From an uncultured Gammaproteobacteria bacterium (GTDB lineage: Bacteria > Patescibacteriota > Patescibacteriia > Patescibacteriales > UBA12465): a stretch of DNA of 51,864 bases. Each line of letters begins with the position of its first letter. Position 1 is the first letter of the stretch. Positions 11,051 to 51,864 of the stretch are shown piece after piece. The DNA lies in the NCBI GenBank assembly GCA_964645545.1, contig CAZXZR010000002.1, forward strand, positions 1 through 51,864, read 5' to 3'. The translations under genes and the position numbers were made by a program. The notes under the pieces were generated by a model. That model saw nothing but the letters and a program-made list of their open reading frames with translations, was not told where the DNA came from and searched no databases.

Positions 11051-11066
11051 CGGACAATTTAATATC

Positions 11067-11143: not shown

Positions 11144-11149
11144 ATACAA

Positions 11150-11499: not shown

Positions 11500-11505
11500 T
11501 CTTTT

Positions 11506-17311: not shown

Positions 17312-17356
17312 AAGAATTGTTTTAATTAATAATCGTTTTTAAATTCGCTCTTCGCT

Positions 17357-17614: not shown

Positions 17615-17634
17615 AAAAATTAACTGACTAGAAA

Positions 17635-17976
17635 CTATTTGTAAAGATTAAGACTAATTAAAGCCTTCCTTATTAACTCTTCTTTGTCCGGGAAACTCTT
17701 TTCTAATAGCGGCGGAAAAACGATAATAAGTAAATCATAATTATCTTTTAATTTAGCTAACTCTCGGCTAATTATAGCTCGCAGCTGCCGTCTTAACTTA
17801 TTTCTTTCCACGGCTTTTCGGCTAACTTTAGCGCTAATCAAAATAGCCACCCGATTTATCTTCTCTTTGTTGGGCGCCACTTTCAGACCTAAATTTCGGC
17901 CATAAAAAGATTGGCCGGTTTTGAAAATCCGGTCAAAATCTTTATTGTTCCTTATTCTATTGGCTTTCTTTAACAT
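17635..17976 (-). CDS. rnpA: Ribonuclease P protein component
   Basis: 113 aa, basic, with the RNR-like motif [13 protein letters not shown]. Position is directly downstream of rpmH. Confidence 0.85.
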
Positions 17977-17997
17977 GCCCCCTGGTTTATAAAAAGA

Positions 17998-18135
17998 TTA
18001 TTTCGCCAAACGCTGGCGACCCTTAACGCGACGGCGCTTTAAAACGCGGCGGCCGTTTTTAGTGCGCATTCTTTTTCTAAAACCGTGTTTTTTCTTGGCC
18101 CGCCGCTTATTCGGCTGGTAAGTTCTTTTCGGCAT
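17998..18135 (-). CDS. rpmH: 50S ribosomal protein L34 (too short for the ORF track)
   Basis: Hand translation of the minus strand gives [45 protein letters not shown] (45 aa). Confidence 0.9.
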
Positions 18136-18411
18136 AAATTTTATGGATTTTTATTGTCTATAATATAACATTTTTATTTGCTAAGGTCAATGAATTGTAA
18201 AAAACTATAAAATTTAAGGGTTAATTTGAATTTTTAAAAGGTTTAAAAACTTATCCACTACTTATCAACATATTTTTAACAATCAATCGCCTTGTGGAAA
18301 AATTCGTTATCCCATATAATTAAACTAATAGAAAATTCTTCTAAAAAGAAAAGTCTTAGACTCTCTTTTCTCTCATCTCTAAAGCTAAATAATCATAAGT
18401 CCTCATTAATT
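18136..18411. other. Candidate oriC part 1: rpmH-dnaA intergenic region with a DnaA-box cluster
   Basis: AT-rich. Contains TTATCCACT (18251-18259), TTATCAACA (18262-18270), TGTGGAAAA (18293-18301) and TTATCCCAT (18307-18315), compared with the consensus TTATCCACA. Confidence 0.5.
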
Positions 18412-19788: not shown

Positions 19789-20060
19789 TTTCCCGAGCCT
19801 AGTTATGGGGAAAAGCTTGTTAACAGGCTGTGTTTTGAAGGGGAGAAATTTTTAATAAATTGTTAATAAAAAAATAAAAAAGATTTTTATTAACAAACCC
19901 TCAACAGCGATTAACAACTTAGCGTCTTAGTTTTAAACAGGCAAAAAACACAAAAATCCTAACAAACCCCAAGAAACCAAAGAAAATTAAAACTTATCCC
20001 CCGCCTTATTATTACTATTATCTAAATAAAGTAAAATATAATTAATAATTTATAAAACCT
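19789..20060. other. Candidate oriC part 2: dnaA-dnaN intergenic region with repeated TTAACA-type motifs and an AT-rich stretch
   Basis: GTTAACAG (19819-19826), TGTTAATAA (19861), ATTAACAAA (19889), ATTAACAAC (19910), the direct repeat TAACAAACCC (19891-19900 and 19961-19970), and TTATCCCCC (19994-20002). These are followed by a nearly pure A/T stretch at 20006-20060. Confidence 0.5.
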
Positions 20061-21194
20061 ATGCGCTTTATAAGCCTGCAAGAAAATTTAAAACGAAGCC
20101 TGAATATCGTTGGACACATCACGACTAAAAATATTAATTTGCCAATTCTTAATAACATTTTAATTCGGGCGGAAAACGGCAATTTGGAGTTTGTCGGCAC
20201 CAACTTGGAAATCGGTATTATTCAGCAAATGCGTGGTAAGATTGAAAAAGAGGGACAATTTACGGTGAATTCAAAACTAATCACTGAATATGTTAATCTT
20301 TTATCCGGGGGCGAGAAAGTGAAGGTGGAAGAAAAGGACGGCGAATTAAAAGTGGAGTGCGGCAACTATAAGACTAAAATTAAGGGTGAGTTGGCCAAAG
20401 AATTCCCGCTTATTCCCACTATTCCCAAGGTCAATTATTATAGTTGTCAGGTAAATGATTTGCGCCAAGCCCTAAATAGCGTCGTTTTTGCCGTTTCCAC
20501 CAGTGAAAACCGAATTGAGTTGACCGGCATTTTATTTTCTTTTAATAAAAATAAATTAAGCTTGGCGGCGACCGACAGTTATCGTTTGGCAGAAAAAGAA
20601 ATTGCCGTTAAGAGCAACGCCCAAGCGGCTGAGCAGAAAATTATCGTGCCAGCCAAAACCGTCCAAGAACTTTTACGTGTGTTGAATAATTTTGAGATTG
20701 GTGAAGCCGTGGGCGGAGAGCCGGAAATTAAATTTTATTTGGCGGAAAATCAAATTTTGTTTACCGTTGATTCGGTGGACTTAATTTCTCGCCTGATTAA
20801 CGGTCATTATCCGGACTATAAACAAATTATTCCCAGCAAAACGCAAACCGAGGTTTTGACGGACCGCACCGAGCTTATTCGGGCCGTTAAAGCCGCCGCC
20901 CTGTTTTCCAAAACCGGCATTAATGACATTAATTTACAATTTTTCAAAGAAAAAATCAGAGTTTCCGCCTCCTCGGGGGCCGGCGGTGAAAGCCAGGCTG
21001 ATTTAGCGGCGGTAACGCGCGGGCCGGATCCGGATAATGAAATTAGCATTAATTATCGCTATCTTTTAGATGGTTTGAATAACGTTGAGGGCGAACGGGT
21101 GAAAATTAGTTTGGTTAATAACGCCACGCCCTGCGTCTTAAGGCCGGAAAAAGATAATAACTATCTCTATATTGTTATGCCCATAAGACAATAA
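20061..21194 (+). CDS. dnaN: DNA polymerase III beta subunit (sliding clamp)
   Basis: 377 aa, three-domain clamp pattern, position after dnaA. Motifs LAATDSYRLA and INGHYPDYKQIIP. Confidence 0.93.
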   Translation: MRFISLQENLKRSLNIVGHITTKNINLPILNNILIRAENGNLEFVGTNLEIGIIQQMRGKIEKEGQFTVNSKLITEYVNLLSGGEKVKVEEKDGELKVECGNYKTKIKGELAKEFPLIPTIPKVNYYSCQVNDLRQALNSVVFAVSTSENRIELTGILFSFNKNKLSLAATDSYRLAEKEIAVKSNAQAAEQKIIVPAKTVQELLRVLNNFEIGEAVGGEPEIKFYLAENQILFTVDSVDLISRLINGHYPDYKQIIPSKTQTEVLTDRTELIRAVKAAALFSKTGINDINLQFFKEKIRVSASSGAGGESQADLAAVTRGPDPDNEISINYRYLLDGLNNVEGERVKISLVNNATPCVLRPEKDNNYLYIVMPIRQ

Positions 21195-21296
21195 GTTTTA
21201 ATGAGAGTTTTGGCCTCGTAGATTTAAACTAGGTAGAAAAAATTAAACCCCCGTCTTTAAGCGGTGGTTTTTTGAGCGATTTTAATTAGCTTAGTT

Positions 21297-37712: not shown

Positions 37713-38045
37713 ATGGCTAATATCGTGGAATTAACAAAAGACAATTTTCAGACCGAAGTCCTGGACAGCCAGACGCCGGTTCTGGTCGATTTTTGGGCGA
37801 GCTGGTGCGTACCTTGCCAGATGATGGCGCCGATTTTGGATGAGTTGGCGACCGAGATGGCCGGCCGGGTGAAAATCGCCAAGCTGGACACGGAAGCGGC
37901 GGCGAGCGGCGACCTGGCCGAAAAATACCAGATCCAAAGCATCCCGAATATGAAGTTATTCAAAGGCGGGAAAGTCGTCGGCGAATTCATCGGTTTGAGG
38001 AATAAGGAAACTCTTAAAGGCGAGCTGGAAAATTTAATAAAATAA
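37713..38045 (+). CDS. trxA: Thioredoxin (active site WCVPC)
   Basis: 110 aa, with VLVDFWASWCVPCQMMAP and IQSIPNMKLFKGG. Confidence 0.9.
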   Translation: MANIVELTKDNFQTEVLDSQTPVLVDFWASWCVPCQMMAPILDELATEMAGRVKIAKLDTEAAASGDLAEKYQIQSIPNMKLFKGGKVVGEFIGLRNKETLKGELENLIK

Positions 38046-38049
38046 AACT

Positions 38050-39276
38050 ATGAGTCTCTTTGAAGACAACCTGAAAAGGTTGGCGGAAGTGAAGGCGCTG
38101 GACAATATTTCCGACGCGGATATGGCGGCACTTTTGGCGCCGGTTAAGGTCAATTACGCCGAGCTGGATGTCAAGGGCCGGAAATATCCGGCCTGGCGTA
38201 TAATCTATAACCAGGCTCTCGGTCCGGGCAAAGGCGGCATCCGTTTTCACCCCGAGGTCTCCGAAGACGAAGTCAAGTCTTTGGCCTTTTGGATGATGTT
38301 GAAAAATTCCTTGGCCGACATCCCTTACGGCGGCGCCAAAGGCGGGGTCAAATTCGATCCGAAAGCGGCCGACAAGGAGGAGCTGGAGGCGGTCAGCCGG
38401 CAGTACGTGGACAAATTTTACGAACATTTGGGCCAGGATAAGGATGTACCCGCCCCCGACGTTTATACCAACAGCCAAATAATGGCCTGGATGCTGGATG
38501 AATATGAAAAGAAAATCGGCCGGCACGAACCGGGTATGATTACGGGCAAGCCCTTGGAGCTCGGCGGCCTGGCCTTGCGCGGCGATGCCACCGCCCAGGG
38601 CGGCTATTTAGTGACCAAGGAAATGGCGGCCGAATTTTTGCAGGGTCGCCGCGATTTAAAGATCGCCATTCAGGGTTTCGGCAACGCCGGCCTGTTTATG
38701 GCCCAAAAACTTTACGATGACGGTTATAAGATTGTCGCTGTCTCCGACAGCCGCGGCGGCATTTATGACGAGGCCGGTTTGGATATCAAGGCTTTGGCCG
38801 TTTTTAAAGCCGGCGGCCAGCCCGTCAGCGAATGGGCCAAGGGTAAGGCGATTACTAACGCCGAACTTCTGGAATTGCCGACCGACATTTTGATTTTGGC
38901 CGCTTTGGAAAACCAAATCACGGCGGCCAACGCCAAAAATATCAAGGCCGACCGGATTGTGGAACTGGCCAACGGGCCGATAAGCTACGACGGGGAAAAG
39001 ATTTTGACCGCCGCCAAGAAAGTCATCGTTCCCGACATCCTGGCTAACTCCGGCGGCGTCATCGTCAGCTATTTTGAGTGGGCGCAAAACCGCGCCGGCC
39101 AAATTCTGGACGAAGATTACTTGCGCCGACTCTTGGAAAAAAAGATGAAAATAAACTGGACCCGCGTTTACGTGGAATATCAGGCCCGCGCCGGCGCCGT
39201 GTCTCTGCGTCAGGCGGCTTATCTGCTCGCCGTGCGCCGCATTTTGGCGGCGGAGAAATGGCGGGGCCAGCTTTGA
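38050..39276 (+). CDS. gdhA: Glu/Leu/Phe/Val dehydrogenase family, glutamate dehydrogenase type
   Basis: 408 aa. Catalytic region GPGKGGIRFHP and dinucleotide fold IQGFGNAG. Confidence 0.9.
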   Translation: MSLFEDNLKRLAEVKALDNISDADMAALLAPVKVNYAELDVKGRKYPAWRIIYNQALGPGKGGIRFHPEVSEDEVKSLAFWMMLKNSLADIPYGGAKGGVKFDPKAADKEELEAVSRQYVDKFYEHLGQDKDVPAPDVYTNSQIMAWMLDEYEKKIGRHEPGMITGKPLELGGLALRGDATAQGGYLVTKEMAAEFLQGRRDLKIAIQGFGNAGLFMAQKLYDDGYKIVAVSDSRGGIYDEAGLDIKALAVFKAGGQPVSEWAKGKAITNAELLELPTDILILAALENQITAANAKNIKADRIVELANGPISYDGEKILTAAKKVIVPDILANSGGVIVSYFEWAQNRAGQILDEDYLRRLLEKKMKINWTRVYVEYQARAGAVSLRQAAYLLAVRRILAAEKWRGQL

Positions 39277-39371
39277 AAAACGAGCGCCCGGCGATTGTCA
39301 GGGCGGGGATAGTTCGGACAAATAAAAAATCTGCTTTAGAGGCAGGTTTTTGCGGTTTGTTGCGCCGAAAT

Positions 39372-39872
39372 TTATACTTTCTTTTTTTGAATCACTTGTT
39401 CTTTTTCTTGTTCAGGGAGAAGCTTATGCTTCTTTTGTTTTACCATTTCGCGGTCATCGACGATGGCCGCTTTTAATTCCTTTCGTACGATTTTCATTAT
39501 CTCGTCCTTATTTTTGAAAGACGAGGAAGTAGGAATCTCATAATTCCAGCAATTGCCAGAAAATTTGATTTTTACTTTGTGCTCATCGAGGTAAATAACA
39601 ATGCTATCCTCGGTTTTTTCGCGGGAAAGAGAATAACAAATATCCACTTTATCCCTGAACATGATTCCGCTTGTGCGGGAAGCTGTTCCCAGATATTGCT
39701 CGCTGAATTTATCAGCGAGTTTTTGAGTTTTCTGCCACTGGTCGGTGATGCCGGGAGCGAGGAGAAAAAATAAAATGAGCCCGAATAATAGGGCGAAAAC
39801 GAAAACGAGAACGAGACAAAACTTTTTCATGGCAATTGATTTTTTATGGTTAATATTGGTGATCGAACTCAT
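39372..39872 (-). CDS. Orphan membrane-anchored or secreted protein
   Basis: 166 aa. AGGAGG lies 8 nt upstream of the ATG at 39872. Signal/TM segment KKFCLVLVFVFALLFGLILFFLLA. No recognisable motif. By eye the region is AT-richer than the surrounding genes. Confidence 0.55.
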   Translation of the reverse strand: MSSITNINHKKSIAMKKFCLVLVFVFALLFGLILFFLLAPGITDQWQKTQKLADKFSEQYLGTASRTSGIMFRDKVDICYSLSREKTEDSIVIYLDEHKVKIKFSGNCWNYEIPTSSSFKNKDEIMKIVRKELKAAIVDDREMVKQKKHKLLPEQEKEQVIQKKKV

Positions 39873-39894
39873 GTCGTCATCCTCCTATATTTAA

Positions 39895-40530
39895 TCACCA
39901 GAAATGGCTCTGGCAGCCTTTGTTAAAGTTCAATTTAAGTGAATTAAACAAAGTCGCGGCGATCTTGAGGTCGGGGGTTAAGCCGTTCATGCCGTAGCCG
40001 TAGTGTCTCCGCTTCGAGTTATAGTAATTGAGCCAGAAATTTAGTTTGAGCTGCAGCTGGGCGTCGGAATCCTGGAAAGAGCAGTATTTCCAGAAGAATT
40101 CGCGTTTAATGGTCTTGTGGAATCTCTCGATCTTGCCGTTCTGCTCCGGGGTGTAGGGTTCGTTGATAATGACCTCAAGGCCGAGAGACGCGCAGAAATT
40201 GATAAACTTCCCGGATTTGTAGCGATTATCCGCCCTGATCCGCCGGATCCGGAGTGGACTCTTAGCGACCAGATATGACAAACAGCCGGTGCGCGAATGG
40301 GGCAAGAAGGTAATGACGCCTTTCTTGGCTAAAAATGGCGAAGCGATTTTCGGCATCCAGAACTTGGATCCGCAAAATCGCGAGCATGTGGAATTTGTCG
40401 GCCGGCTGGAAGTCCCGGAAATGGTCGTGGAAGATTGTTCGGAGAGGTACTCGCGGTTGGAAAAGATGCTCTTGGAAGCCTGATGCTTATGATCCTTGCC
40501 GCCCGCAAGCGCGGCGGCGGTGAAAAACAA
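39895..40530 (-). pseudogene. Decayed DDE transposase remnant (rve integrase core, IS481/IS3-like), N-terminally truncated
   Basis: The C-terminal half is a clear rve domain: NEPYTPEQNGKIERFHKTIKREFF ... YNSKRRHYGYGMNGLTP. The region that should carry the first two catalytic Asp residues reads FWMPKI / FLPHSRTG. There is no HTH domain. Confidence 0.65.
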
Positions 40531-40559
40531 AAAAGACGGACTTGTTGGCCCGTCTTTTT
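40531..40559 (-). terminator. Intrinsic terminator after the thioredoxin-fold gene (bidirectional shape)
   Basis: Stem agacgg/ccgtct with a 10-nt loop, flanked by A-run and T-run. Confidence 0.5.
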
Positions 40560-40593
40560 ATATTTTTTCTTACCCCTTATTCGTGATTATCTC

Positions 40594-41595
40594 TTATTCG
40601 CAATTGGCCGCGGCGGCGCTGTCGGTCGTGCTCGTGCCGAAGCCCGGTCCCGGCGTGGCCGAGGACAAAGCCGTGTCGCAGGCGGCCGGCGGCGTGTTGA
40701 AGGCGCTGCAAATCGTGGCTAAAAGCGAGGCGCTGTCGCGGCCGCTCTGGATCGACTGGCCGTCAATGACTAAGGTCGGGGAACCGCTCACGCCATACTT
40801 TTCATTATCCGCCTTAAAAACATTGAAGCTCGGGTAGCTGCCCTGGTAACCGACGTTGTTCGTGAAGTTGCTCGTGACTTTATATTTCTGGTCAGTCTGG
40901 GAGACGCAGCTGTCCAATTTGGTTTTGTTTATGCCGGCCGAGCTTAAACAGGAGGCGGAATCGCCCGCCTGGAGAAAACAACCAAGATAGGCCTGCAGTT
41001 TGCTGTTTTGTTCGCTGGCGATGCAGTATTGGGTCAGGTTTTCCGCCAGCTCCTGCTGGCCGTGCATGGCGTAATCAACGAATTTTAATTGGAAGTCAAT
41101 TTTATTGCCTAAAGCCGCCAGGGCGGGCAAAATCCCTTTTTCCATCTGCGTGCCGTAAGGGCAATAGCTCATAACGAAGAGTTCCACAGTTGGTTTGTCG
41201 CTTTTAGCGCTGACGGTCGCCGGCGCGCCGGAAGAGGAAGGATCGCCCGAGTTCTGGCTGGCACCAATCTCGTCAATGTCCAGAGCTTGGGGGAAGAAAA
41301 GCTTGCCGTCTTGGGAAAGGTAGGACTCCACCTGGCCGGAAGTTATGTCCACTTTCATCTTGTAAAGGCCGTACGCGGGCGTGACTTCGCTGACCGTGGC
41401 TTTCTCGCCCGGTTGCATCAGGAAGTCGTTGATGAAATTTTCCGCCCGTATTTTGGCCTGGTCCGGAGTCAGGACGCTTGTTTTCGGGCGGAAGGAAAGC
41501 CAAGCGATCAAAGCCAAGGCGATGATTAGGATAAGGGGCAGGAAAAAACGCAAGAAAGTCTTGCGGTTGAACAAACGTTGGAAGAATTTTTTCAT
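40594..41595 (-). CDS. Membrane-anchored extracytoplasmic thioredoxin-fold (DsbA-like) protein with a monothiol CPYG motif
   Basis: 333 aa. N-terminal TM, S/G/P linker, then VELFVMSYCPYGTQMEKG and a Cys-rich C-terminal half. Confidence 0.55.
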   Translation of the reverse strand: MKKFFQRLFNRKTFLRFFLPLILIIALALIAWLSFRPKTSVLTPDQAKIRAENFINDFLMQPGEKATVSEVTPAYGLYKMKVDITSGQVESYLSQDGKLFFPQALDIDEIGASQNSGDPSSSGAPATVSAKSDKPTVELFVMSYCPYGTQMEKGILPALAALGNKIDFQLKFVDYAMHGQQELAENLTQYCIASEQNSKLQAYLGCFLQAGDSASCLSSAGINKTKLDSCVSQTDQKYKVTSNFTNNVGYQGSYPSFNVFKADNEKYGVSGSPTLVIDGQSIQSGRDSASLLATICSAFNTPPAACDTALSSATPGPGFGTSTTDSAAAANCE

Positions 41596-41722
41596 AGCTT
41601 TATTTTAGCTTAAGATTTATTAATTCCCGTTTAAGAGCAAAGAGCCGCCGGTCAAATTGCGGCCCTCTTTTTTAAACTCTTTTCATTATAGAGCAAATCC
41701 CGGCCGCCGTAAAGCGCCGCCG

Positions 41723-42547
41723 TCAGGAGTGGGGCAGGAAATTTTTTAACTCGGCCGGCAAGGGTAGGGAAAAGCTTTGCCGCCGGTTTTTCCGGTCCGA
41801 AAAGGCCAGGCGGTCGGCGACCAGGAAGATGCGGCCGAGCTTGAGACGTTGGTTTTTTCCCTTGGTTTTCTTGGTGGCGTAAAGGTCATCGCCGACCAGC
41901 GGATGGCCATAGGCGAAGAAATGGACGCGGATTTGGTGCGTGCGCCCGGTCCTTATCTTGACCCTTACCAGCGTGTAATTGACGAAGCGTTCCAGGACCT
42001 TGAATCCGGTCGCGGCCGTCCGCGCCTTGAAGAAGCCGGCGATATTGCCACGGTCGCGGCTCCGGGGAGAGCGGCGCGTCAAAAGATTTTCGCTTTGTCG
42101 GGGCAGGGCGGCCATCTTATGGCCGGCGCGGGCGCGCTTGATCAGGAAATCTATGTCGCCCTCGTCCTTGGCGACGCGGCCGTAAACTAAAGCGACGTAT
42201 TCCTTGTCCACGCTCCGGGCCTGGAACTGTTTTTTCAAAAGCGAGAAAGTTTCTTGGTTCCGAGCCACGACCATCAGGCCGCTGACCTCCTTGTCCAGGC
42301 GGTGGACGATGCCGGGCCGGTCCGGATCCTCGCCCGCGCCGGCGGTTTCCGGATAATGCCGCCGCAGCCAGTCGGCCAAGGTCGGTTGGCGCAGGTTGCC
42401 GCCCGGATGGACCGCCAGGCCGGCCGGTTTGTTTATAACCAAGTAATCCCTGGTTTCGGAAATGACGGCCGGTTCGGGGAACGGGGCGCTCCCGGTCGCC
42501 ACGGCCGGCACCTTGTTTTTTTTCTTAGAATTTTCCGGTCGGGTCAT
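41723..42547 (-). CDS. RluA-family pseudouridine synthase
   Basis: Catalytic Asp motif HRLDKEVSGLMVVA, plus YVALVYGRV and RTGRTHQIRVH. The ATG at 42547 is preferred over the GTG at 42604. Confidence 0.85.
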   Translation of the reverse strand: MTRPENSKKKNKVPAVATGSAPFPEPAVISETRDYLVINKPAGLAVHPGGNLRQPTLADWLRRHYPETAGAGEDPDRPGIVHRLDKEVSGLMVVARNQETFSLLKKQFQARSVDKEYVALVYGRVAKDEGDIDFLIKRARAGHKMAALPRQSENLLTRRSPRSRDRGNIAGFFKARTAATGFKVLERFVNYTLVRVKIRTGRTHQIRVHFFAYGHPLVGDDLYATKKTKGKNQRLKLGRIFLVADRLAFSDRKNRRQSFSLPLPAELKNFLPHS

Positions 42548-44009
42548 AAGTCGGGCTGGCGCCTTTTTTCTGGCGCTTAAAAATAAGACTGAGGTCTTCC
42601 GCACCCAGGCCGCCGAAGAGCCAGAGGCCGCCGAAATATACCAGGGCGGCGATAAGGAGGACGGCGATCAAACCGAGAATGTTGGTTTGGAAGCGTTGGG
42701 GCGAAAAATACAGGCAGGCGCCCATCAGCAGGCCGGCCGCCAAAGCCCGCCCGCTCATTTTCAGCTTCGGTCGGAAGCGCCCGTATTTGTAAACGCAATA
42801 GGCGGCGAAGGCGGCGATCAGGACCTCGCTGTAAATGGTGACGCCGGCGGCACCGAAGACGGAGAAACGGGGGATGAGCCAGAGGTAGCCGATCAGGGAA
42901 CTTAAGCCGGTAAAGACGTAGAAGCGGATCATCTTTCGCTGTTTGTCCAAAGCGATGACGGCATGGGAGAACATCGTGCCCAGAAAAATGGCGGCGACGG
43001 CGAAAATCAGGATTTGCAGGATCGCGCCGGAAGGGGCGAAGTCGTCGCCGGCAACGAAGACCATCAACGATTTGCCGACGAATTGGGCGCCGATGACCAA
43101 GGGAATAGCCAAGGCGGCCATGAAGTCAAAGGATTTTTGCAAGGCGCGCCTGAAATATTCGTGCTCGTTATCCAGCCAGGCGGCCGTCAAAATAGGCAGG
43201 ACCAGGCCGGCGAACATGAAGGGCAGGGTGGCCAGGACATCAATGACGCGGTAGGCGGCCCCGTAGAGGCCGACGTCGGCCGGACTCTTGAAAAAGGAGA
43301 GCAGGAGCGTGTCGGCGCGCAGGTAAATCAGGTTCAAGACGATGGTCACGGCCAGAGGCCAGGATTTGGTCACGATTTTTTTCCATAAGCCGAAGTCAAA
43401 GGCCGGCCGGATAAAGGCATATTTGAAAGCCAGGAAGTAATGGAGCAGAAAGTTGGCGGCGCCGGCGGCGACCGTGGTGATCAAAACGCCGTTCAGGCCG
43501 GCGCCGGATTTTTCCGAAAAAATGATGCCGGCGATGAGAACCAAGCGGCTGAAGACTTCGGCCGCGGCATCGCGGTTCATGCTCAATTTTTTTTGGAAGA
43601 GGCCGACGATGATCTGGTTCAGGGCCGGGAAAATGAAGGCCGCCGCCGCCAGCAGGATGCCGGCTTTGACGGTCGCGCCATAAGGCGAAAAGATGGCGAA
43701 GAGGGGCGCCAGGGCAAGGAAGAAAAGGACGGAAAGCAAACGCAGGCCGAAAAGGTTATTCAAAATGTGGCGCTCTTCTTCGGGCTCGCGCCGGCCGGCG
43801 ATCATTTGCGCCGTCACCAGGGTCAGGCCGAGGTCGGCGATGACGGCGAAGAAGGTCAGGAAAGTGATGACGGTGGTGTATTCGCCGAAACCGGCCTGGC
43901 CGAGATAGCGGGTGATAAGGGCGATAGAAAAAAGCCCCAGTATCGTGGAGATGATCTTACTGATTATTTGTACCAGGGTATTTTTGGCGATTCTGGCGGC
44001 CAGGCTCAT
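42525..44009 (-). CDS. MOP-superfamily flippase (Wzx/polysaccharide-biosynthesis or MurJ-like)
   Basis: 494 aa with about 12-14 TM segments. The N-terminus MSLAARIAKNTLVQIISKIISTILG is typical of oligosaccharide flippases. Confidence 0.8.
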   Translation of the reverse strand: MSLAARIAKNTLVQIISKIISTILGLFSIALITRYLGQAGFGEYTTVITFLTFFAVIADLGLTLVTAQMIAGRREPEEERHILNNLFGLRLLSVLFFLALAPLFAIFSPYGATVKAGILLAAAAFIFPALNQIIVGLFQKKLSMNRDAAAEVFSRLVLIAGIIFSEKSGAGLNGVLITTVAAGAANFLLHYFLAFKYAFIRPAFDFGLWKKIVTKSWPLAVTIVLNLIYLRADTLLLSFFKSPADVGLYGAAYRVIDVLATLPFMFAGLVLPILTAAWLDNEHEYFRRALQKSFDFMAALAIPLVIGAQFVGKSLMVFVAGDDFAPSGAILQILIFAVAAIFLGTMFSHAVIALDKQRKMIRFYVFTGLSSLIGYLWLIPRFSVFGAAGVTIYSEVLIAAFAAYCVYKYGRFRPKLKMSGRALAAGLLMGACLYFSPQRFQTNILGLIAVLLIAALVYFGGLWLFGGLGAEDLSLIFKRQKKGASPTYDPTGKF

Positions 44010-44080
44010 TTTTTCCTTGTTTTTTTAGGCGAATTTTTATATAATGAGATTGTCCTTATAATTATATCATATTTATATCT

Positions 44081-44509
44081 ATGACCAGAAAGCGCATTTT
44101 TTCTTGGTTTTTCGTGTCTCTTCTTGTCTTATGGGAAGCGGCCGTCTTTACGCTGCCGGTTCAGCCGGTTTCAGCCGACGAAACCCTATTCAACAGCCAG
44201 ACGGGCATGGCGGAATTGGGCACGGTTTACGGCCATACCAAGACGGATATCAGGGTAATCATCGGCAATATCATTACCATCGCCCTGGGCTTCTTAGCCT
44301 TGTTATTTCTGGTTCTGACCCTCATCGCCGGCTTCCAATACATGACTTCGGGCGGCAACGAGGAAAAAACCCGGACGGCCAGGAAACATTTGACCAATGC
44401 CCTTATCGGCCTGGTCATCGTCTTAATGGCCTGGGCGATCACCCGCTTCATTTTGCGCCGCCTGGCCGCGGCTATCAATAACAACGTGGACCTGTTGTAT
44501 CCATATTGA
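44081..44509 (+). CDS. TrbC/VirB2-like (T4SS-pilin family) small membrane protein
   Basis: 142 aa. Signal peptide, then two TM helices flanking a short loop: LIAGFQYMTSGGNEEKTRTARKHLTNALIGLVIVLMAWAI. The family call is from recollection. Confidence 0.55.
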   Translation: MTRKRIFSWFFVSLLVLWEAAVFTLPVQPVSADETLFNSQTGMAELGTVYGHTKTDIRVIIGNIITIALGFLALLFLVLTLIAGFQYMTSGGNEEKTRTARKHLTNALIGLVIVLMAWAITRFILRRLAAAINNNVDLLYPY

Positions 44510-44534
44510 TTTCCCGGCGGTCCGCCAGTTTCGG

Positions 44535-44562
44535 TTGACAAAATTACGCCCAGTGTTATAAT
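44535..44562 (+). promoter_or_regulatory. Near-consensus sigma70 promoter for nusA
   Basis: TTGACA (44535-44540), 16-nt spacer ending in TGt, then TATAAT (44557-44562). Confidence 0.55.
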
Positions 44563-44628
44563 GGAAAAAGAAAGCTAGTTGTGAAGACAATTAGCTTTTT
44601 CTCTATCAGCTATTTTAAGCCTAAAAAT

Positions 44629-46251
44629 ATGTCGGAAATAACCAACGCCATCAAACAGCTTTGCGAAGAAAAGAATCTTGATTTCGCTTCGGTCACGAGC
44701 GCCATCGAATTGGCCTTGGCGGCCGCCTACCGCAAGGATTATGGCGAGCGTAACCAGAACATTCGCGTCAAATTCGATCCCCAGACCGGCGGCAGCGAAA
44801 TTTTTGACGTGAAAACGGTGGTGGAAGACTTGCCCGAAGAGGAAGAAGCGGAAATGCTAAAAAATTTATATAACCCACCGGCGGAAACGAAAAAGGAAGA
44901 ATTCAAAGAAGAATTTGCGGAAACACGGGGGGCGAAAGCGTCCGCGAGCGCGGCGGAAGAGAAGGCCGTGCCTGGCGAAGGGGTCGGCGGAGCTCCGGCC
45001 GGCGCGGAAGCGGGCGAAGAAAAAAAGAAATTCAATCCCAAGTCGGACATCCAATTGAAAGAAGCCCTGATCTTGAAGCATGACGCCAAAATCGGGGAAG
45101 AAATCATTACCGAACTGCCCTTGCCGGAAAGCTACGGCCGCATGGCGGCCCAGACCGCCAAGCAGGTCATCATCCAGAAGTTGAGAGAAATGGAACGCGA
45201 CATGATTTTCGGGGAATTCAAAGGCAAGGAAAAGGAAGTCGTTTCCGGCGTCGTCCAGCGCCGCGAAGGCCGCCTGGTTTTCGTGGATCTGGGTAAGGCC
45301 ATAGGCCTTTTGCCTTCGGAAGAGCAGATCTATAACGAACGCTACGAGGCGGGCGAGCGCCTGAAAGTCTTCATTAAGGAAGTGCGCGAAGGCCACAAGG
45401 GTCCGGAAATAATCCTGTCGCGCCGCAGCGAGGAAATTTTGCGCAAGGTCTTTTATTTGGAAATTCCCGAAATCGCCAACGGTTTGGTGGAAATCAGGGC
45501 GGTGGCCAGAGAAGCCGGGTCGCGCTCCAAGGTGGCGATTTGGACAGACGCGGAAAACGTCGATCCGGTCGGTTCCTGCGTCGGCCAGCGCGGCTCGCGT
45601 ATCCAGATGATCATCAGCGAATTGGGCGGGGAGAAGATAGACATTATAGAATATAATGACGATCCGGAAAGATTCATCGCCAACGCCCTGGCGCCGGCGA
45701 AAATCATGGGCCTGGAACTGGACGAAAAGGAGCATAAGGCGACTGTCAGGGTCTCGCCGGACAAGCTGTCCTTGGCCATAGGCAAGAACGGCCAGAACGT
45801 CCGTTTGGCCGCCCGTCTGACCGACTGGAAAATAGACATCGTGGAAGCCTCCGAAGACGGGGCGAAGAAAGTGACTGGAAGCGAGGAAAGCGAAGAGCCG
45901 ATTGGCGAAGCTAAGGCGGGGGAGGCGGTGCTTAAAAAGGAAGCCGGTGAGGGAGTCGGTGAAGAAACGACTGAAAAGTCGGCCGCCAAAGAGGAAAAAG
46001 TCGCCGCCGAGGAAAAGCCGAAGAAAACAAAAACGAATGCTAAAGTGGAGATCATGGAAATAAGCGCCGAAGAAGCGAAAAAGATAGTCAATGCCTTTAA
46101 GAATAAAGAAAGTTTGGAGGGCGAAAACGGCCGCGGGAAAAGCCAAAAAATCACGCTCGGCAAAGGCATCGCCACGATCGAGTGGGAAAACGGCGAACTT
46201 GAGAAACATCGCCATGAATCTTTCTATAAGAATTTAATTAATAAAAAATAA
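44629..46251 (+). CDS. nusA: Transcription termination/antitermination factor NusA with an acidic insertion and a C-terminal extension
   Basis: S1 domain ([19 protein letters not shown]) and KH1/KH2 domains ([29 protein letters not shown]). The ATG at 44629 ([11 protein letters not shown]) is preferred over the GTG at 44581. Confidence 0.9.
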
Positions 46252-46262
46252 AATCACGATTT

Positions 46263-48263
46263 ATGCTGACCCATCTCTTTATTTTGGGGAGCGCCTTGGT
46301 CGCCGTCATTTACGGCGCCATTGTCATCGTTTCCATTTTGCGCTTGCCGGCCGGCAATGAGAAAATGGCCGCCATTAGCAAAGCCATACAAGCCGGCGCT
46401 AAGGCCTTCTTGAACCGCCAGTACAAGACCGTGGCGGTGGTGGCCCTGGTTTTGTTCGTCATTATCGGCTTAGTGCCGACCTTGGGCTGGCTGACCGCGG
46501 CCGCCTTCCTGTTCGGCGCAATTTTTTCCGCATTGACCGGCTATATCGGCATGTTCGTCAGCGTGCGCGCCAACGTGCGCACGACAGAAGCTGCCCGCCA
46601 GGGCTTGGGCAAGGCTTTGGGCGTAGCTGTTAGGGGCGGCAGCGTCACCGGCATGCTGGTTATCGGCTTGGCTCTCTTGGGCACGGCCGGTTTCTATTTC
46701 CTGACCCATGACTTGCACGCTTTAATAGGTTTCGGTTTCGGCGGATCACTTATTTCCATATTCGCCCGTTTGGGCGGCGGCATATATACCAAGGCCGCCG
46801 ACGTGGGCGCGGACCTGGTCGGCAAGGTTGAGTCCAATATTCCGGAAGACGACCCGCGCAATCCGGCCGTCATCGCCGATAACGTCGGCGATAATGTCGG
46901 CGATTGCTCCGGCATGGCCGCTGACCTGTTTGAAACTTACGCCGTGACTTCCATCGCGGCCATGGTCTTGGGTTCGCTGACTTTTTCTGCTGATCCGAAA
47001 ATCATAATCTACCCGCTTGTCTTGGGAGCCATTTCCATTATCGCTTCCATCATCGGCATTTTCTTCATCCGTTTGGGCAAAAAGAAAATGATCATGCGGG
47101 CTTTGTATAAAGGCTTGATAGCGGCCGGCGTTTTATCCGCCATTGCTTTTTATTTCGTTACCAGGAATTTAATCGCCGATCCGGCCGTGAGTTTGAAAAT
47201 ATTTTTGGCGAGCCTGATCGGCTTGGCCGTGACCGGCCTTCTGGTCGTGATTACCGAATACTATACTTCCACCAAATACGGGCCGGTAAAATCCATTGCC
47301 GAAGCGTCCAAGACCGGGCATGGCACGAATGTCATCGCCGGCTTGGCGGTTTCCATGAAATCGACCGCCTTGCCGATTATCGTGATTGTGCTGGCGATTT
47401 TAGGCGCATATGCCTTAGCCGGCCTGTATGGCATCGCCGTGGCCGCCATGGCCATGTTGTCTATGGCCGGCATCATCGTGACCATAGATGCTTACGGCCC
47501 GATTACCGATAATGCCGGCGGCATCGCGGAAATGGCCGAATTGGGAGAAGACGTGCGCAACGTTACCGATCCCTTGGACGCGGTCGGCAACACGACCAAG
47601 GCTGTGACCAAAGGCTATGCCATCGGTTCGGCCGCCCTGGCCGCCTTGGTCCTGTTCGCTGATTTCACTTTTAAGATTTCTGCTGGCGGCGGCACGGTGC
47701 AGTTCTTGATCAATAACCCTTACGTATTAAGCGGTCTGTTCATCGGCGGGCTATTGCCTTTCTATTTCGGCGCCCTGGCCATGAAAGCGGTCGGCCGCGC
47801 GGCCGGCTCGGTCGTGGAAGACGTGCGCGCGCAGTTCAAGGAAAAGGCCGGCATCATGAGCGGCGCGGAAAAACCGGATTATGGGCGCACCGTGGACATC
47901 GTCACCAAGGCGGCTTTGAAAGAAATGGTCGTGCCGGCCCTGATTCCGGTAGTCGTGCCCATCGTCGTCGGTTTCGCCTTCATGAGCCACGGCCTGGAAG
48001 CCCTCGGCGGCTTATTGGTCGGCTCCATCATTACCGGCATTTTCGTGGCCGTGTCCATGACGTCGGGCGGCGGCGCTTGGGACAATGCCAAGAAATATAT
48101 TGAAGCCGGCAACTTCGGCGGCAAGGGTTCGGACGCCCATAAGGCGGCAGTGACCGGCGACACGGTCGGCGATCCCTATAAGGATACGGCCGGCCCGGCG
48201 ATAAACCCGATGATCAAGGTCTTGAATATCGTGGCCTTATTGATCGTGGGATTGTTGCTGTAA
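46263..48263 (+). CDS. hppA: Membrane-integral H+-translocating pyrophosphatase, K+-independent type
   Basis: 666 aa, with [27 protein letters not shown] carries Lys at the position known to distinguish K+-independent from K+-dependent (Ala) enzymes. Confidence 0.95.
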
Positions 48264-48279
48264 AAATTAATGATAATTA

Positions 48280-48308
48280 AAAGCGCCCAGGTTAAATGGG
48301 CGCTTTTG
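48280..48308 (+). terminator. Intrinsic terminator of hppA
   Basis: 8-bp stem AGCGCCCA/TGGGCGCT (48282-48304) with a 7-nt loop, followed by a T-run. Confidence 0.6.
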
Positions 48309-48313
48309 TATTG

Positions 48314-48340
48314 AAAAACCCCGGATCCTTGGTCCGGGGC
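48314..48340 (-). terminator. Intrinsic terminator of the minus-strand orphan operon
   Basis: 7-bp stem CCCCGGA/TCCGGGG (48319-48339). On the minus strand it is followed by TTTTT. Confidence 0.55.
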
Positions 48341-48359
48341 TTATTATGGTTATAAATTA

Positions 48360-50495
48360 CTATAGATTACCCTTAATCGTAACCTGCGCGCCCATCGTTT
48401 CCAGCCAGGTTTTCCAGAAATTGCTGGCGGCGCGGAAAGTCGCGTCGTCCTCAATATTTCTGGGGGCGTAAATGATATAAATCTGATAACCGCTTAATTT
48501 AGGCAGAGGCGCTTTTTTCAAGAAAGCCTCTTTAATTTTTTCCTGCTGTCTTTGATTATTCAAGTCCAGCCGGTAAAAACTAATATCAGAATTTTCTATC
48601 ATATCGGAAACGATGATGATGATTTTTATCGCCTCCGGATCGGCGTTCATGGTCTTGGCCGCTTCGGCAATGGGCAAATAGATGCTGGTTTTTTCCTCTC
48701 CTTGCGACGAGGTAAAAAACATTTTCCATTGTTCGGCCAGTTCCGTGGTGAACCGCGTCAGCTCCCTTTTTCTTAGGACAGCAGTTTCGTCTCGCAGCCT
48801 GGGCTTGAGCGAGATTTTCCTGGTTTTGTTTAGGGAAAAAGCGTTTATTTCATAGAAGGATATGCGGCCATAACCGCCCTTCATGAGTTCCAGGATGCCA
48901 TTTGGGTCAACCAAACTTTGCAATTTTTGGTTTTGCTCCGTTTGGTCGACCATGATTGCAATGTCATATTTCGGCTGGTCCGGAGTGCCGCAACGCGAAA
49001 GAAATAATGACGAGGCCAATAAAATCGACAAGATAAGCGATTTTACTGGCAAGCCCGCATCAATTTTTTTGTCTGTCCGGTTTTCCTCGGCGCCTAAATA
49101 AGGCTTAAACAATTCAGGAATGTCCAAGCTTGGTTCAGGGCCGAGCTCTTCGACGGGGAAGTATTCCATGAGTATTTGGCGCTGATAGACTAAATCCGCG
49201 CGGAATCTTTTCATCATGAAATCCAGGTAAATTTTTAAGTAATTTTCACTTTTCTTAAAAATTCTTTCCGCTTCTTCATAATCATTCCTCTTCTCTTCAA
49301 ATTTCTTGGCTTCGCTCGTATAATCCAGAGCTTTTATTTCCTGGTTAAGCTTATGGAGCTTGGTGGCGTTATCTTGCGCGATAGTGTCAAGATAAGTTTG
49401 GTTCACGCCATCCAGTTCATTTTCTTTAGAACGGATTTTGGCGTTCAAGTTGGTCACGATTTTGTAGAGATCTTCATAAGCTTTTCTTTTCTCCGTCGGG
49501 ATTTTGCTGGTCATTATCAGGGACCAGCCGAAACCGGCAATGAAAATGAAGAAGTTCAAAACCGCCATCATGGTTGGGCTGATGTTGGCCGTTCCCACCT
49601 CGGAAATGTAAAGGGAACGGAAATAGCCGGCGATGAAACTGACGCCGACCATAAGCAGGCAGATTACCGGCGCGACCAGCCAGTATGGCTTTTTCGGTTC
49701 GGATTTTTTTATGGAAGCGGCGCTGACATGCGCCAGCATCATAATGACAATGCCGAACATCAAAGCCATGACATAAGTAGCGGTTTTGCCTTCGCCGAAA
49801 AGTTGGAATACCGGATAGTTAACCGGCATTTCCGCGAGCGCCACCGCCGCCAAACCGATCGCATAAATGATTTTTCTCATGGCTGACGGCCGGTGCGGCA
49901 CGGTAACTTTCCACAAAGTATATGAGAGATTGGATAACTCATTATACTTGGTTTGGCGTTCGGCCTTCAACTCGCCCAACTCCGCGGCCAAGATTTTAAC
50001 AGTTTGGTCATGAAGTTCGGCATTGGCCCTTTTTTGCTCCTGATAGAATTGTTCCGTTTCCGGCCGGCCTAAAGGCGTCGTGTGCGATTCCAGGGCGGCT
50101 TTAGACTGGTTGAAATCATTATCTATTTCCGCCTTGTCCGGAGCGATGTCTTCGGCTGCCGCGTTAAGCATCTTGTCGTAGGCTTTGACCAAACCGGCTT
50201 CATCAGCCAGCTCTTGCTGGTATTTGGCTTCAATTCCAGCCAATACTTGGCTGCGTCTTTGTTGCTCTTGGCTATCGGTAGCAAACAGGGCTTTTTCATG
50301 CAAAGCATAATCACGGTAATCCGGATGTAAACTGATTTTCATGGTCCGGATTTTTTTAAGATCAGTCGAGATTTCTTCCAAGTGCGGATCAATCTCAATT
50401 TTTTTCTGGCTAAGGATGGTGCCGATATTCAAGCGCCCGTCAATTTTAGCCAGTAATTGATTTTTTTCTTCCATGGCATTAATTTTTGTGTCCAT
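48360..50495 (-). CDS. Unknown 711-aa membrane protein: coiled-coil, 4 TM, coiled-coil, internal signal/lipobox-like TM, vWA-like alpha/beta domain
   Basis: Long uninterrupted ORF with no family motif I recognise. Segment boundaries were read from the sequence: charged helical region 1-205; TM segments at about 209-230, 239-260, 271-292 and 308-328; charged helical region 335-465; KKIDAGLPVKSLILSILLASSLFLSRCG at 476-503; alpha/beta domain 510-711. Confidence 0.7.
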   Translation of the reverse strand: MDTKINAMEEKNQLLAKIDGRLNIGTILSQKKIEIDPHLEEISTDLKKIRTMKISLHPDYRDYALHEKALFATDSQEQQRRSQVLAGIEAKYQQELADEAGLVKAYDKMLNAAAEDIAPDKAEIDNDFNQSKAALESHTTPLGRPETEQFYQEQKRANAELHDQTVKILAAELGELKAERQTKYNELSNLSYTLWKVTVPHRPSAMRKIIYAIGLAAVALAEMPVNYPVFQLFGEGKTATYVMALMFGIVIMMLAHVSAASIKKSEPKKPYWLVAPVICLLMVGVSFIAGYFRSLYISEVGTANISPTMMAVLNFFIFIAGFGWSLIMTSKIPTEKRKAYEDLYKIVTNLNAKIRSKENELDGVNQTYLDTIAQDNATKLHKLNQEIKALDYTSEAKKFEEKRNDYEEAERIFKKSENYLKIYLDFMMKRFRADLVYQRQILMEYFPVEELGPEPSLDIPELFKPYLGAEENRTDKKIDAGLPVKSLILSILLASSLFLSRCGTPDQPKYDIAIMVDQTEQNQKLQSLVDPNGILELMKGGYGRISFYEINAFSLNKTRKISLKPRLRDETAVLRKRELTRFTTELAEQWKMFFTSSQGEEKTSIYLPIAEAAKTMNADPEAIKIIIIVSDMIENSDISFYRLDLNNQRQQEKIKEAFLKKAPLPKLSGYQIYIIYAPRNIEDDATFRAASNFWKTWLETMGAQVTIKGNL

Positions 50496-50552
50496 GTCCG
50501 TTCGTTTTTAAGGACGGGGGCGGGTTAATACTGATTTTACTTACGTTTTTTG

Positions 50553-51737
50553 TCACATTGACTTAATGTTAAGCGACAAGAAGACGATAAATAAAGTATG
50601 GATTAACCCATTAACGCTCTTGTCGCTTTTGCCGAGAACGAATGACGGCTTCATGCTTATGCCCGTGATTTCGCTGGCCCAGAAAGAATCCCGGCGGTTC
50701 AGAATGTTGTTTTCCAGCGATGCCGCCAGACTTACGATCTTTTTGATGTCAGTTGAATCGCGCAAGCTATCTTTCAAGCCCAAGAATGCGCCCTTGATAC
50801 TTTTTAGTCGCCCGCCGTCCTTAATTTGATCAATCTCATTCTGGAAAGAATTATGCCAACCGAGCATCAGGTTATGCCGATCAAGCACTGTTTCGCAGTT
50901 AAAATGGTTCCAAACCAAATTAAAACTGCGCCTAATCCCCTCGGGAATTAGGGGGATGAGAGTAATAGCCGTGACATGGTCTATGCCGAGAAGGCCGGCA
51001 CGCTTGTTTTGCGTGCAGAAAGCGACCAGCGGATTGGGCAGGTCAAGCTTTTCTGAAATGGCCTCCGCTTGCATTAATATGCCCTTGGCGCTGGTCTTAT
51101 TGGCCAGGCCGGACAGAAGGCGTTCAACATCAATGGCCAAACCAGGTTGATCTCTCTGTATCACTTTTAAATTGGCTTCGGCAAATGTTCTCCAGGCATC
51201 CATGCCCAGGTGACGCTGATACATTTCCAGCGGGTTAAGGCCCTTCCATTTGATTGTGTCCAGAGGGCTGAAATCAAAGAAAGAATTTTCGATTTTTTCT
51301 TTGATAACACCATCAATCAGCTGAGGAATGGTCATTACAGAATCTAACTCCCCTTTAGGGCAGTTGAAGATTCTTAGCATTTTGTCATGGGAAACACCAC
51401 CTTCCAACGCAAACCTTTCAACTCTATCTTGGCCGACGTAGCCGAAGATAAATGATGAGTGGCGGCTGAAGTTAGTGAATACGCTGTAGCTTATTTCCAC
51501 GCTAGCCGCGTTTTCCGGCTGCTGGCAATAGAATTTGAAATTGCACCTCAAATGCTCCGGCTTAATTTCAATTTCCAATGCCTTTTGCGTGTACGGCAAT
51601 CTGATGAAATATTTTTTGCCGTTCAGGGTGAGAGCGAATTCCTTCTGATCAAGGACTCGCTGGACCTCCCTTTCCAAGGTCTCTTGGGTCAGATCGGTCT
51701 GAAAGATCCGATGCAACCCGCTAAATAGTTTTTCCAT
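50553..51737 (-). CDS. Unknown 394-aa protein, first gene of the orphan operon
   Basis: Uninterrupted ORF. GGAGG lies 9 nt upstream of the ATG at 51737. No recognisable motif. Short hydrophobic C-terminal tail GLIHTLFIVFLSLNI. Confidence 0.7.
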   Translation of the reverse strand: MEKLFSGLHRIFQTDLTQETLEREVQRVLDQKEFALTLNGKKYFIRLPYTQKALEIEIKPEHLRCNFKFYCQQPENAASVEISYSVFTNFSRHSSFIFGYVGQDRVERFALEGGVSHDKMLRIFNCPKGELDSVMTIPQLIDGVIKEKIENSFFDFSPLDTIKWKGLNPLEMYQRHLGMDAWRTFAEANLKVIQRDQPGLAIDVERLLSGLANKTSAKGILMQAEAISEKLDLPNPLVAFCTQNKRAGLLGIDHVTAITLIPLIPEGIRRSFNLVWNHFNCETVLDRHNLMLGWHNSFQNEIDQIKDGGRLKSIKGAFLGLKDSLRDSTDIKKIVSLAASLENNILNRRDSFWASEITGISMKPSFVLGKSDKSVNGLIHTLFIVFLSLNIKSM

Positions 51738-51818
51738 GGTCTAAGACCTCCATTTTTGCGCTCCTGTCCAATTTTTTTGCGGACGCGAGCAGGTTAAACA
51801 ATAAATTTTTAAAGTTCC

Positions 51819-51845
51819 CGTTATATTTATTGATTAAATATAACG
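51819..51845. promoter_or_regulatory. Perfect 11-bp inverted repeat (operator-like) upstream of the orphan operon
   Basis: CGTTATATTTA (51819-51829), spacer ttgat, TAAATATAACG (51835-51845). Lies 82-108 nt upstream of the ATG at 51737. Confidence 0.4.
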
Positions 51846-51864
51846 ATAAATTTTAGCATAATAT

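Follow-up and report, generated by a model that had tools for sequence, protein, structure and literature searches.

Two adjacent minus-strand genes, here termed A and B, occupy the right-hand end of contig CAZXZR010000002.1. This contig was analysed over its entire length of 51,864 bp and is referred to as the window. Gene B proved to be the single-chain form of a widespread, uncharacterised two-protein envelope module whose hosts include Saccharibacteria, Proteobacteria, Bacteroidota and other contigs resembling those of the Candidate Phyla Radiation (CPR). The pair in the window is uncharacterised, not unique, native in composition and has no demonstrated link to defence. The statements made below on architecture and evolution are well supported; the function that we propose, an integrin-like device for ligand binding at the cell surface or for cell contact, is a low-confidence guess.

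Gene B as the fused form of a two-protein module

The deduced proteins were compared with Pfam (2025), NCBIfam (2026), PADLOC (2023; PADLOC-DB 2.0) and the PDB sequences. Pfam, NCBIfam and PADLOC gave sub-threshold matches only, and nothing was retrieved from the PDB sequences with phmmer, in agreement with the initial annotation that neither protein could be placed. In a word-indexed search of 5.8 billion clusters A and B retrieved themselves only, and with a joined A+B family alignment B alone was retrieved, this latter search probably being drowned by coiled-coil words. Finally, the concatenated A and B sequence (1105 aa) was used for an exhaustive phmmer (HMMER) search against 1.84 billion representatives of 50%-identity clusters. 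It yielded 571 relatives (E<=1e-3), nearly all of them matching B, which can no longer be called an orphan.

The breakdown of relatives covers 150 listed of these 571 proteins. Among the 150 are (i) 18 fused, full-length B-like proteins of 507-755 aa; (ii) seven proteins that match only the N-terminal and transmembrane (TM) part of B, termed the N-module; (iii) about 121 proteins of ~230-250 aa that match only the last ~220 residues of B, termed the C-domain; and (iv) two relatives of A (P0017 and P0096). The best listed match to B is P0003 (40% identity, E 2e-134), and the closest named relatives come from metagenome-assembled genomes (MAGs) of Saccharibacteria. When 100 members of the C-domain family were scanned singly and the listed relatives were examined, no Pfam, NCBIfam or PADLOC family was found. 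For B, P0013 and P0015, searches of phage, plasmid and viral-contig collections retrieved no relative, and no description of the module was found in the literature.

Weak matches to the Pfam families ABC2_membrane_5, SLATT_5, MARVEL, Tetraspanin and MFS_1 were dismissed, being below threshold and inconsistent among the relatives. The SLATT_5 match (E 0.0063, 16.3 bits vs a cutoff of 29.5) concerns residues 374-430 of B, which form a cytoplasmic coiled coil and not a TM segment. Likewise, the match to ABC-2 permeases (PF13346; 22.3 bits vs a cutoff of 25) is restricted to the last 94 profile positions; such a permease needs six TM helices and an ATPase, whereas only four helices span the membrane in B and its surroundings contain no gene for an ABC ATPase.

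Wherever a C-domain gene was seen together with upstream sequence, a membrane-protein gene was located directly upstream, often overlapping, or the two were fused. The fused form is present in the window and in loci L008, L010, L019, L027, L028 and L029. Split forms with clear homology to the N-module were found in L011/L012/L021 (442 + 288 aa), in the Saccharibacteria MAG loci L014/L022 (351 + 228 aa) and L015 (350 + 234 aa), in L013, and in L020 (357 + 237 aa). The polytopic membrane protein encoded upstream of the C-domain gene has weak homology to the N-module in L025 and Marinomonas L017 (532 + 276 aa), and homology was undetected in Pelagihabitans L018 (402 + 243 aa) and Sandarakinorhabdus L016. 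No other functional link in the data is as strong as this alternation of split and fused forms, which lies within B rather than between A and B. In Saccharibacteria the split module is followed, 2-5 nt downstream, by a conserved gene (Table 1) whose product is 31-37% identical between loci. This soluble protein of 167-173 aa belongs to no Pfam family and has no counterpart in the window; it has the appearance of a third component specific to this lineage.

A model of B was obtained with AlphaFold2 from an alignment of 147 sequences, and topology was assigned by hydropathy and the positive-inside rule. The mean predicted local distance difference test score (pLDDT) was 83.5, with residues 150-470 and 505-711 mostly >90. 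The predicted segments of the chain are listed in Table 1. Residues E222, P224, N226, F230, T240, G248, R293 and G321 of the N-module are invariant or nearly so, and most of them cluster at the outer face of the four-helix bundle. Profiles of the N-module and of the C-domain retrieved only coiled-coil noise from the PDB sequences.

The junction between the two halves appears to preserve a trace of the fusion. Judged from the sequence, the segment ending in LFLSRC(502) is a lipoprotein-signal remnant of a formerly separate C-domain gene. Standalone C-domain proteins carry a signal sequence at their start, with a Cys within residues 11-40 in 71 of 99 proteins and a lipobox-like motif in 50 of 99; the remaining ones have an N-terminal TM segment that looks uncleaved. 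In all 19 fused proteins the corresponding internal site, after ~450-500 residues of the chain, is a hydrophobic segment ending in Cys (residue 502 of B, window position ~48990-48992), and the internal lipobox is canonical in 17 of the 19 (e.g. ILSAC, FFASC, FLVGC, LLSGC). The two non-canonical cases are B itself (LSRC) and its closest relative P0003 (FVEC). B deviates from the lipobox pattern [LVI][ASTVI][GAS]C in that L-S-R-C(502) has Arg at position -1, and cleavage is therefore doubtful. The hydrophobic segment of B probably stays in place as a TM anchor; the family ancestor was probably lipoprotein-like, and B of the window is probably not a lipoprotein. As for the fused chains in general, either internal cleavage and lipidation take place or the Cys has been kept for some other reason. 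No report of internal lipoboxes was found in the literature.

Table 1. Features of genes A and B, predicted segments of protein B, and the gene following the split module (positions refer to the window unless a locus is named)
Feature	Position	Strand	Remarks
Gene A	50553..51737	-	394 aa, ATG start
Gene B	48360..50495	-	711 aa, ATG start
A-B spacer, 57 nt	50496..50552	-	no terminator-like site; A and B share reading frame
GGAGG Shine-Dalgarno sequence of gene A	51747..51751	-	9 nt before ATG
Perfect 11-bp inverted repeat, CGTTATATTTA / TAAATATAACG	51819-51829 / 51835-51845		5-nt loop; ~80 nt upstream of gene A
Hairpin resembling an intrinsic terminator	48319-48339	-	TTTTT at 48314-48318; 9 pairs, 7 of them G-C; 20 nt past stop codon of B
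B residues 1-205	49881..50495	-	predicted cytoplasmic coiled coil, poorly conserved, pLDDT low before ~100; ends in conserved P-H-R/K-P hinge
B residues 206-330	49506..49880	-	predicted four-helix transmembrane bundle, N-in
B residues 331-470	49086..49505	-	predicted cytoplasmic hairpin of two ~50-residue helices (334-389, 393-443)
B residues 471-504	48984..49085	-	linker and fifth hydrophobic segment (484-501) ending LFLSRC(502)
B residues 505-711	48363..48983	-	predicted extracytoplasmic alpha/beta domain, vWA-like fold
167-173-aa gene after split module, L013	1306-1827		
167-173-aa gene after split module, L014	7534-8040		
167-173-aa gene after split module, L015	7726-8229		
167-173-aa gene after split module, L022	6409-6915		

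The A-B operon, its borders and its composition

A and B form a real two-gene operon. The two minus-strand open reading frames (ORFs) with their spacing of 57 nt, the Shine-Dalgarno sequence and the perfect inverted repeat upstream of A were all confirmed as initially annotated, and we infer that A and B are co-transcribed. The inverted repeat extends to 19 nt with 84% complementarity (51811-51853), and a 27-nt match like it occurred in 0 of 100 shuffled sequences. The hairpin with T-run downstream of B is likewise present and opposes the hppA terminator (48279-48307). Terminator-like sites as such did not exceed the shuffle rate, as seven were observed in the region vs 5.6 expected from shuffles, i.e., there was no enrichment; a role of the hairpins as terminators is plausible, and statistically they are unremarkable. 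On balance, the description of the locus as a compact unit of two genes bounded by terminators was supported.

Protein A is mainly helical. It had been described as a soluble partner, with which the lack of a strong TM segment agrees; its hydrophobic C-terminal helix leaves that description unproven. The conserved core of A (~159-277) is marked by the motifs KTSA and NP..(F/Y)CT..K.SG..GI.H and contains Cys241, His254, Lys245 and Arg175/His176. A Foldseek search with A gave a best E-value of 0.31, a profile search against the PDB gave nothing, and scans of viral and metagenome contigs revealed no relatives of A. One of its two listed relatives, P0017 (375 aa, 29% identity, E 5e-19), is encoded in L008, 90 nt upstream of a 681-aa homologue of B (38% identity over 636 aa, E 5e-155). 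P0156 and P0155 are near-identical variants and may share a contig of 138 kb, this being the length of the longest contig of each cluster. The other relative, P0096 (147 aa), consists of the core only and in L009 precedes the gene of a three-TM coiled-coil protein; the latter was considered as a counterpart of B and rejected, as it is not homologous to B. A profile search of all ORFs detected no A-like gene beside other loci of the B family. A is thus a lineage-restricted accessory, accompanying B in two lineages that have diverged. The A-B pairing emphasised in the initial annotation does recur in L008; the strongly conserved partnership is, instead, that between the two halves of B.

The right end of the window lies 127 nt upstream of gene A. 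The same genes were found on seven other metagenome contigs (L001-L007) from six samples, and all seven end before or inside gene A, none extending upstream as far as the end of the window. Three independent contigs begin at one identical base within the inverted repeat. Assemblies recurrently break here, which suggests repeated or strain-variable DNA immediately upstream, and the inverted repeat may be linked to the cause of these breaks. The terminal sequence of the window had no match in viral contigs and no second copy in the window. Within the operon the strain contigs differ by only 3-5 single-nucleotide polymorphisms, all located in codons 114-148 of A (~51294-51398); they comprise M120L, I145V and three synonymous changes. 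The sequence of B is unchanged across all seven other contigs.

With respect to composition, A and B have GC contents of 45.6% and 46.2%, respectively, as compared to 52% for nusA and 57% for hppA. The pair is thus AT-richer than these flanking genes, as had been noted by eye, but not than the window as a whole, where genes range from 38 to 60% GC with many at 44-49%; it follows that the stretch from 38 to 48 kb is the outlier, and not the pair. Similarly, the deviating codon preferences ascribed to both genes apply in mild form to A, the third lowest of 31 genes, and not to B, whose synonymous codon usage is ordinary. Since the composition of the pair is typical of the window, the pair is not an island, and the accessory-island reading was rejected on both GC content and codon usage. 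The GC-rich block itself (38000-48300) has 52-60% GC, with values of up to 0.77 at third codon positions (GC3). It includes an rve-type integrase fragment (39895-40530) between two family-less ORFs (166 aa at 38.5% GC, and 333 aa), and this region (39372-41595) may be an insertion remnant. The integrase fragment, ~8 kb from the pair, is the sole trace of a mobile element in the window.

Fold of the C-domain and candidate functions

The C-domain (residues 505-711) was modelled with pLDDT values mostly >94. Its secondary structure elements follow the order b1-a1-b2-b3(hairpin)-a2-a3-b4-a4-b5-a5-b6, and its six-stranded sheet has the strand order of von Willebrand factor A (vWA) domains. Foldseek matched it in the PDB to the vWA domain of NorD (9qh6_G), to ITIH1 (6fpy), to a chain of the BRCA1-A complex and to Sec23/24 (probability 0.96-1.00, E ~5e-4 to 1e-2), and further to a phage VWFA protein (probability 1.00). 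D517 does not vary among 100 C-domain sequences, and conservation is at least 90% for T519, S/T603, S630, D631 and E634. The positions of these residues, following b1, preceding a3 and following b4, are the three of a metal ion-dependent adhesion site (MIDAS). The C-domain is predicted to be external and, with high confidence, to have a vWA fold; its set of conserved residues is MIDAS-like. As the domain is predicted to be extracytoplasmic and to have this fold, the idea of a cell-surface interaction module, raised in the initial annotation, is a reasonable one.

The genomic context of the relatives was then considered. In all five Bacteroidota-type loci (L019, L020, L027 of a Bacteroidales MAG, L028 and L029) the module lies within a few kb of mobilisation genes. 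In four of the five the B-like gene, or the split pair, comes first and is followed by one to four short ORFs, in some cases DUF2958, then a MobC/NikA-like gene, a relaxase gene (PF03432) and a gene for a TraG-type coupling protein; L020 has no MobC/NikA-like gene. In L028 the mobilisation genes are upstream and on the opposite strand, and in the other four loci they are co-oriented with the module, which precedes them. An integrase or ArdC gene is located near the module in four of the five, and the neighbourhoods include genes for NACHT+WD40, TPR-CHAT, RHS and AAA_13 proteins. Downstream of the B-like gene, L019, L027, L028 and L029 have runs of two to five short ORFs of 74-170 aa that belong to no Pfam family; in L019, L027 and L029 they lie between it and the genes for MobC, relaxase and coupling protein. 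Among the other loci, the L008 pair is flanked by infB/rbfA and the gene for RNase Y. In Marinomonas L017 the gene of an OmpA-family peptidoglycan-binding lipoprotein directly precedes the pair, and in Pelagihabitans L018 a PBP1a-type gene lies ~1 kb downstream of it, with one membrane-protein gene between. L010 harbours at 1238-2720 a SMODS nucleotidyltransferase gene (E 8e-15) followed by that of a 161-aa protein with weak matches to SLATT_5 and SLATT_6, judged by sequence a conflict pair resembling cyclic oligonucleotide-based antiphage signalling systems (CBASS). The B homologue P0005 is encoded ~4.5 kb downstream of this conflict pair, and a recombinase gene lies in the interval.

We tentatively propose that the module is an integrin-like device for binding of surface ligands or for cell contact, a statement that, taken as a whole, may well be wrong. 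The external vWA-like domain would bind a surface ligand, probably via a metal ion, and the outer polar patch of the four-TM bundle (E222/N226/R293) would serve as its docking site. The cytoplasmic three-helix coiled coil could relay the contact into the cell or anchor it there, and A, a probable peripheral membrane protein, would attach to this coiled coil. The ligand would most likely reside on another cell, or else on the cell's own envelope at a site of contact or DNA transfer, because mobilisation genes are neighbours in all five Bacteroidota-type loci and CPR hosts live attached to other cells.

Several observations weigh against this proposal. The E-values of the Foldseek matches are modest, which is due to the use of the full 711-residue model as query. 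D-x-T replaces the D-x-S-x-S of the MIDAS, and the third position of that motif is not conserved (Q521 in B). No Pfam VWA match was found in B, in 10 relatives or in 100 family members, and the family profile gave no vWA match among the PDB sequences. The top matches in BFVD are phage proteins annotated as GDSL-like lipases (E 3.5e-5 and 8.4e-5, probability 0.97). A link of A to the coiled coil of B is conjecture; the AlphaFold2 model of A, built from three sequences, has a pLDDT of 47.8 with only the helical core (~170-300) exceeding 65, and A is conserved in one other lineage only. Finally, contexts outside Bacteroidota are heterogeneous (housekeeping flanks, OmpA-like lipoprotein, PBP1a, SMODS plus SLATT).

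The main rival, which we regard as somewhat unlikely, is a conflict module of mobile elements, in which the external domain senses phage adsorption or a conjugative pilus while the four-TM and coiled-coil part depolarises or blocks the membrane; alternatively, the module might act in surface or entry exclusion. Lipoprotein exclusion factors of conjugative elements are exemplified by TraT, TrbK and YddJ. Such a role would fit the patchy distribution over CPR, Bacteroidota and Proteobacteria, the fast divergence (the nearest listed relative of B is 38-40% identical) and the variable partners (A here, the 167-173-aa protein in Saccharibacteria). It would further fit the integrative mobilisable elements with adjacent ArdC, NACHT+WD40, TPR-CHAT, RHS and AAA_13 genes, and the SMODS and SLATT-like pair and recombinase within 6 kb in L010. 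However, PADLOC was negative for A, B and eight relatives, and only the unrelated OmpA-like neighbour in L017 matched ZorB/MotB models; the conflict or defence role suggested by the initial annotation thus lacks any signature of a defence system. In addition, no copies were present in the phage, plasmid and viral-contig collections, the gene in Bacteroidota is placed in the mobilisation array and not among variable cargo, and both the window and L008 have housekeeping flanks and native composition. In the elements seen a relaxase and a coupling protein are encoded, whereas genes for a mating pore are lacking within 9 kb, and no cognate for an exclusion role is obvious for that reason.

A role in housekeeping maintenance of the envelope, in which the cell wall or a protein of the envelope is the target of the external domain, the remainder serves as membrane and coiled-coil scaffold, and neither contact nor conflict is involved, is unlikely. 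While the OmpA-family lipoprotein gene of L017, the PBP1a-type gene of L018 and the housekeeping flanks of the window and L008 point in this direction, the proteins of L016-L018 are only remotely related, with E-values of 1e-4 to 1e-7 for the C-domain and an N-module that is hardly or not at all detectable, and their context may not transfer. Moreover, the module is sporadic rather than universal in any phylum sampled, and its consistent linkage to mobile elements in Bacteroidota is hard to reconcile with a core role. Least probable is that the C-domain is an exported hydrolase of the SGNH/GDSL or another alpha/beta type, and the module hence an enzyme tethered to the membrane with lipids or the cell wall as its substrate: although the best BFVD matches carry lipase annotations and the conserved Asp/Ser/Thr/Glu set could equally be catalytic, those matches span 668-703 columns with TM-scores of 0.11-0.14 and root-mean-square deviations >60 Å and are largely driven by coiled coils, the SGNH/GDSL blocks (G-D-S, G-x-N-D, D-x-x-H) and a conserved His were not found in a family that conserves D-x-T, S-x-x-Y and S-D-x-x-E-N, the domain has a b2-b3 hairpin, and the matches to solved structures at probability 0.96-1.00 are all vWA.

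A bolder speculation, unlikely to be correct, concerns the fused chain. It might be split at its internal lipobox by Lgt/LspA, so that the coiled-coil part would remain as a subunit in the membrane and the vWA part would become a second, lipoprotein subunit; the two together would constitute an unrecognised apparatus for contact, mating or exclusion in mobilisable elements of Bacteroidota and in episymbiotic CPR bacteria; A and the 167-aa protein of Saccharibacteria would be lineage-specific cytoplasmic adaptors. No description of biogenesis by such Lgt/LspA splitting was found in the literature.

If the module is related to surface contact or DNA transfer, it offers a clue to two poorly understood matters, the many uncharacterised genes beside the mobilisation genes of mobilisable elements in Bacteroidota and the surface organisation of ultrasmall CPR bacteria. 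As no Pfam, NCBIfam or PADLOC model exists for the family, its definition would provide an annotation for numerous lipoproteins and membrane proteins now listed as 'hypothetical'. The internal lipobox conserved among fused forms is unusual in terms of lipoprotein biogenesis and open to testing. Gene pairs that lack characterisation are frequent in genomes of this kind, and the present pair is less a surprise than a useful lead.

Other features of the window and comparison with known systems

Two genes for class-I aminoacyl-tRNA synthetases of the Val/Ile/Leu type are located on the minus strand at 7033-9702 and 11094-13677. The former is complete (889 aa) and has the C-terminal arm of ValRS. 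In the latter (723 aa) the anticodon-binding domain is truncated and a 157-aa ORF overlaps the 3' end. Its codon usage (-0.224) deviates more than that of any other gene in the window, and the gene may represent a paralogue that is either frameshifted or of foreign origin. Genes for tRNA-Ile(TAT) and tRNA-Val(GAC) lie between the two (10977-11143). The region ~17000-21200 contains yidC, dnaA and dnaN, and the minimum of the cumulative GC skew at ~19-21 kb coincides with a switch of the gene strand; the chromosomal replication origin is probably within the window. A gene for a VirB2-like pilin of type IV secretion systems (PF18895, 44081-44509) adjoins nusA. Its copy in L001 (7364-7762) has a 2-nt deletion which shifts the frame of the C-terminal third and reflects either strain variation or an assembly error. 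Affiliation of the window with the CPR was deduced solely from this pilin gene and from the closest named relatives of B, which belong to Saccharibacteria MAGs.

Among known systems, the integrative mobilisable elements of Bacteroidota (MobC/NikA-like protein, MOB relaxase PF03432, TraG/VirD4) resemble the module's surroundings in that relatives of B adjoin mobilisation genes, whereas the window and the CPR-type loci have neither a relaxase nor a coupling protein gene near the pair. No published role for a module gene in such elements was found. Stators of the MotA/ExbB/TolQ/ZorA type with their MotB/ExbD/TolR/ZorB partners resemble the module in gene order, as the gene of a polytopic membrane protein precedes and overlaps that of a periplasmic protein with a membrane anchor, and in the long cytoplasmic helices emanating from a TM bundle; in addition, the OmpA-like protein encoded upstream in L017 has weak matches of the ZorB/MotB type. 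In contrast to these stators, the Foldseek probability for TolQ or ExbB was at most 0.28, and no PADLOC match to ZorA was obtained. The anchor segments of the 19 fused proteins have no conserved Asp, and a proton-driven stator is therefore unsupported; membership in the MotA/ExbB/TolQ group was rejected on the basis of this and of the low Foldseek probability. Lipoproteins processed by Lgt/LspA are matched by the standalone C-domain proteins with their signal sequence and frequent lipobox, but not by the fused proteins, which carry the lipobox ~500 residues into the chain.

The closest parallels are integrin I-domains and the TM-vWA proteins of the BatA/BatB type. The predicted fold and strand order, the Asp, Ser/Thr and Asp at the three MIDAS loops and the combination of a membrane-tethered domain with TM segments are shared with them. 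Differences are the lack of sequence-profile similarity of B to Pfam VWA or to vWA domains in the PDB, the D-x-T motif and the additional conserved E634/N635 of the B family, and the lack of a MoxR-type ATPase partner. Unlike in known vWA proteins, the obligatory partner here is a four-TM coiled-coil protein. Of the whole module only the C-domain can be linked, via its predicted fold, to a known superfamily, and its partner is unprecedented.

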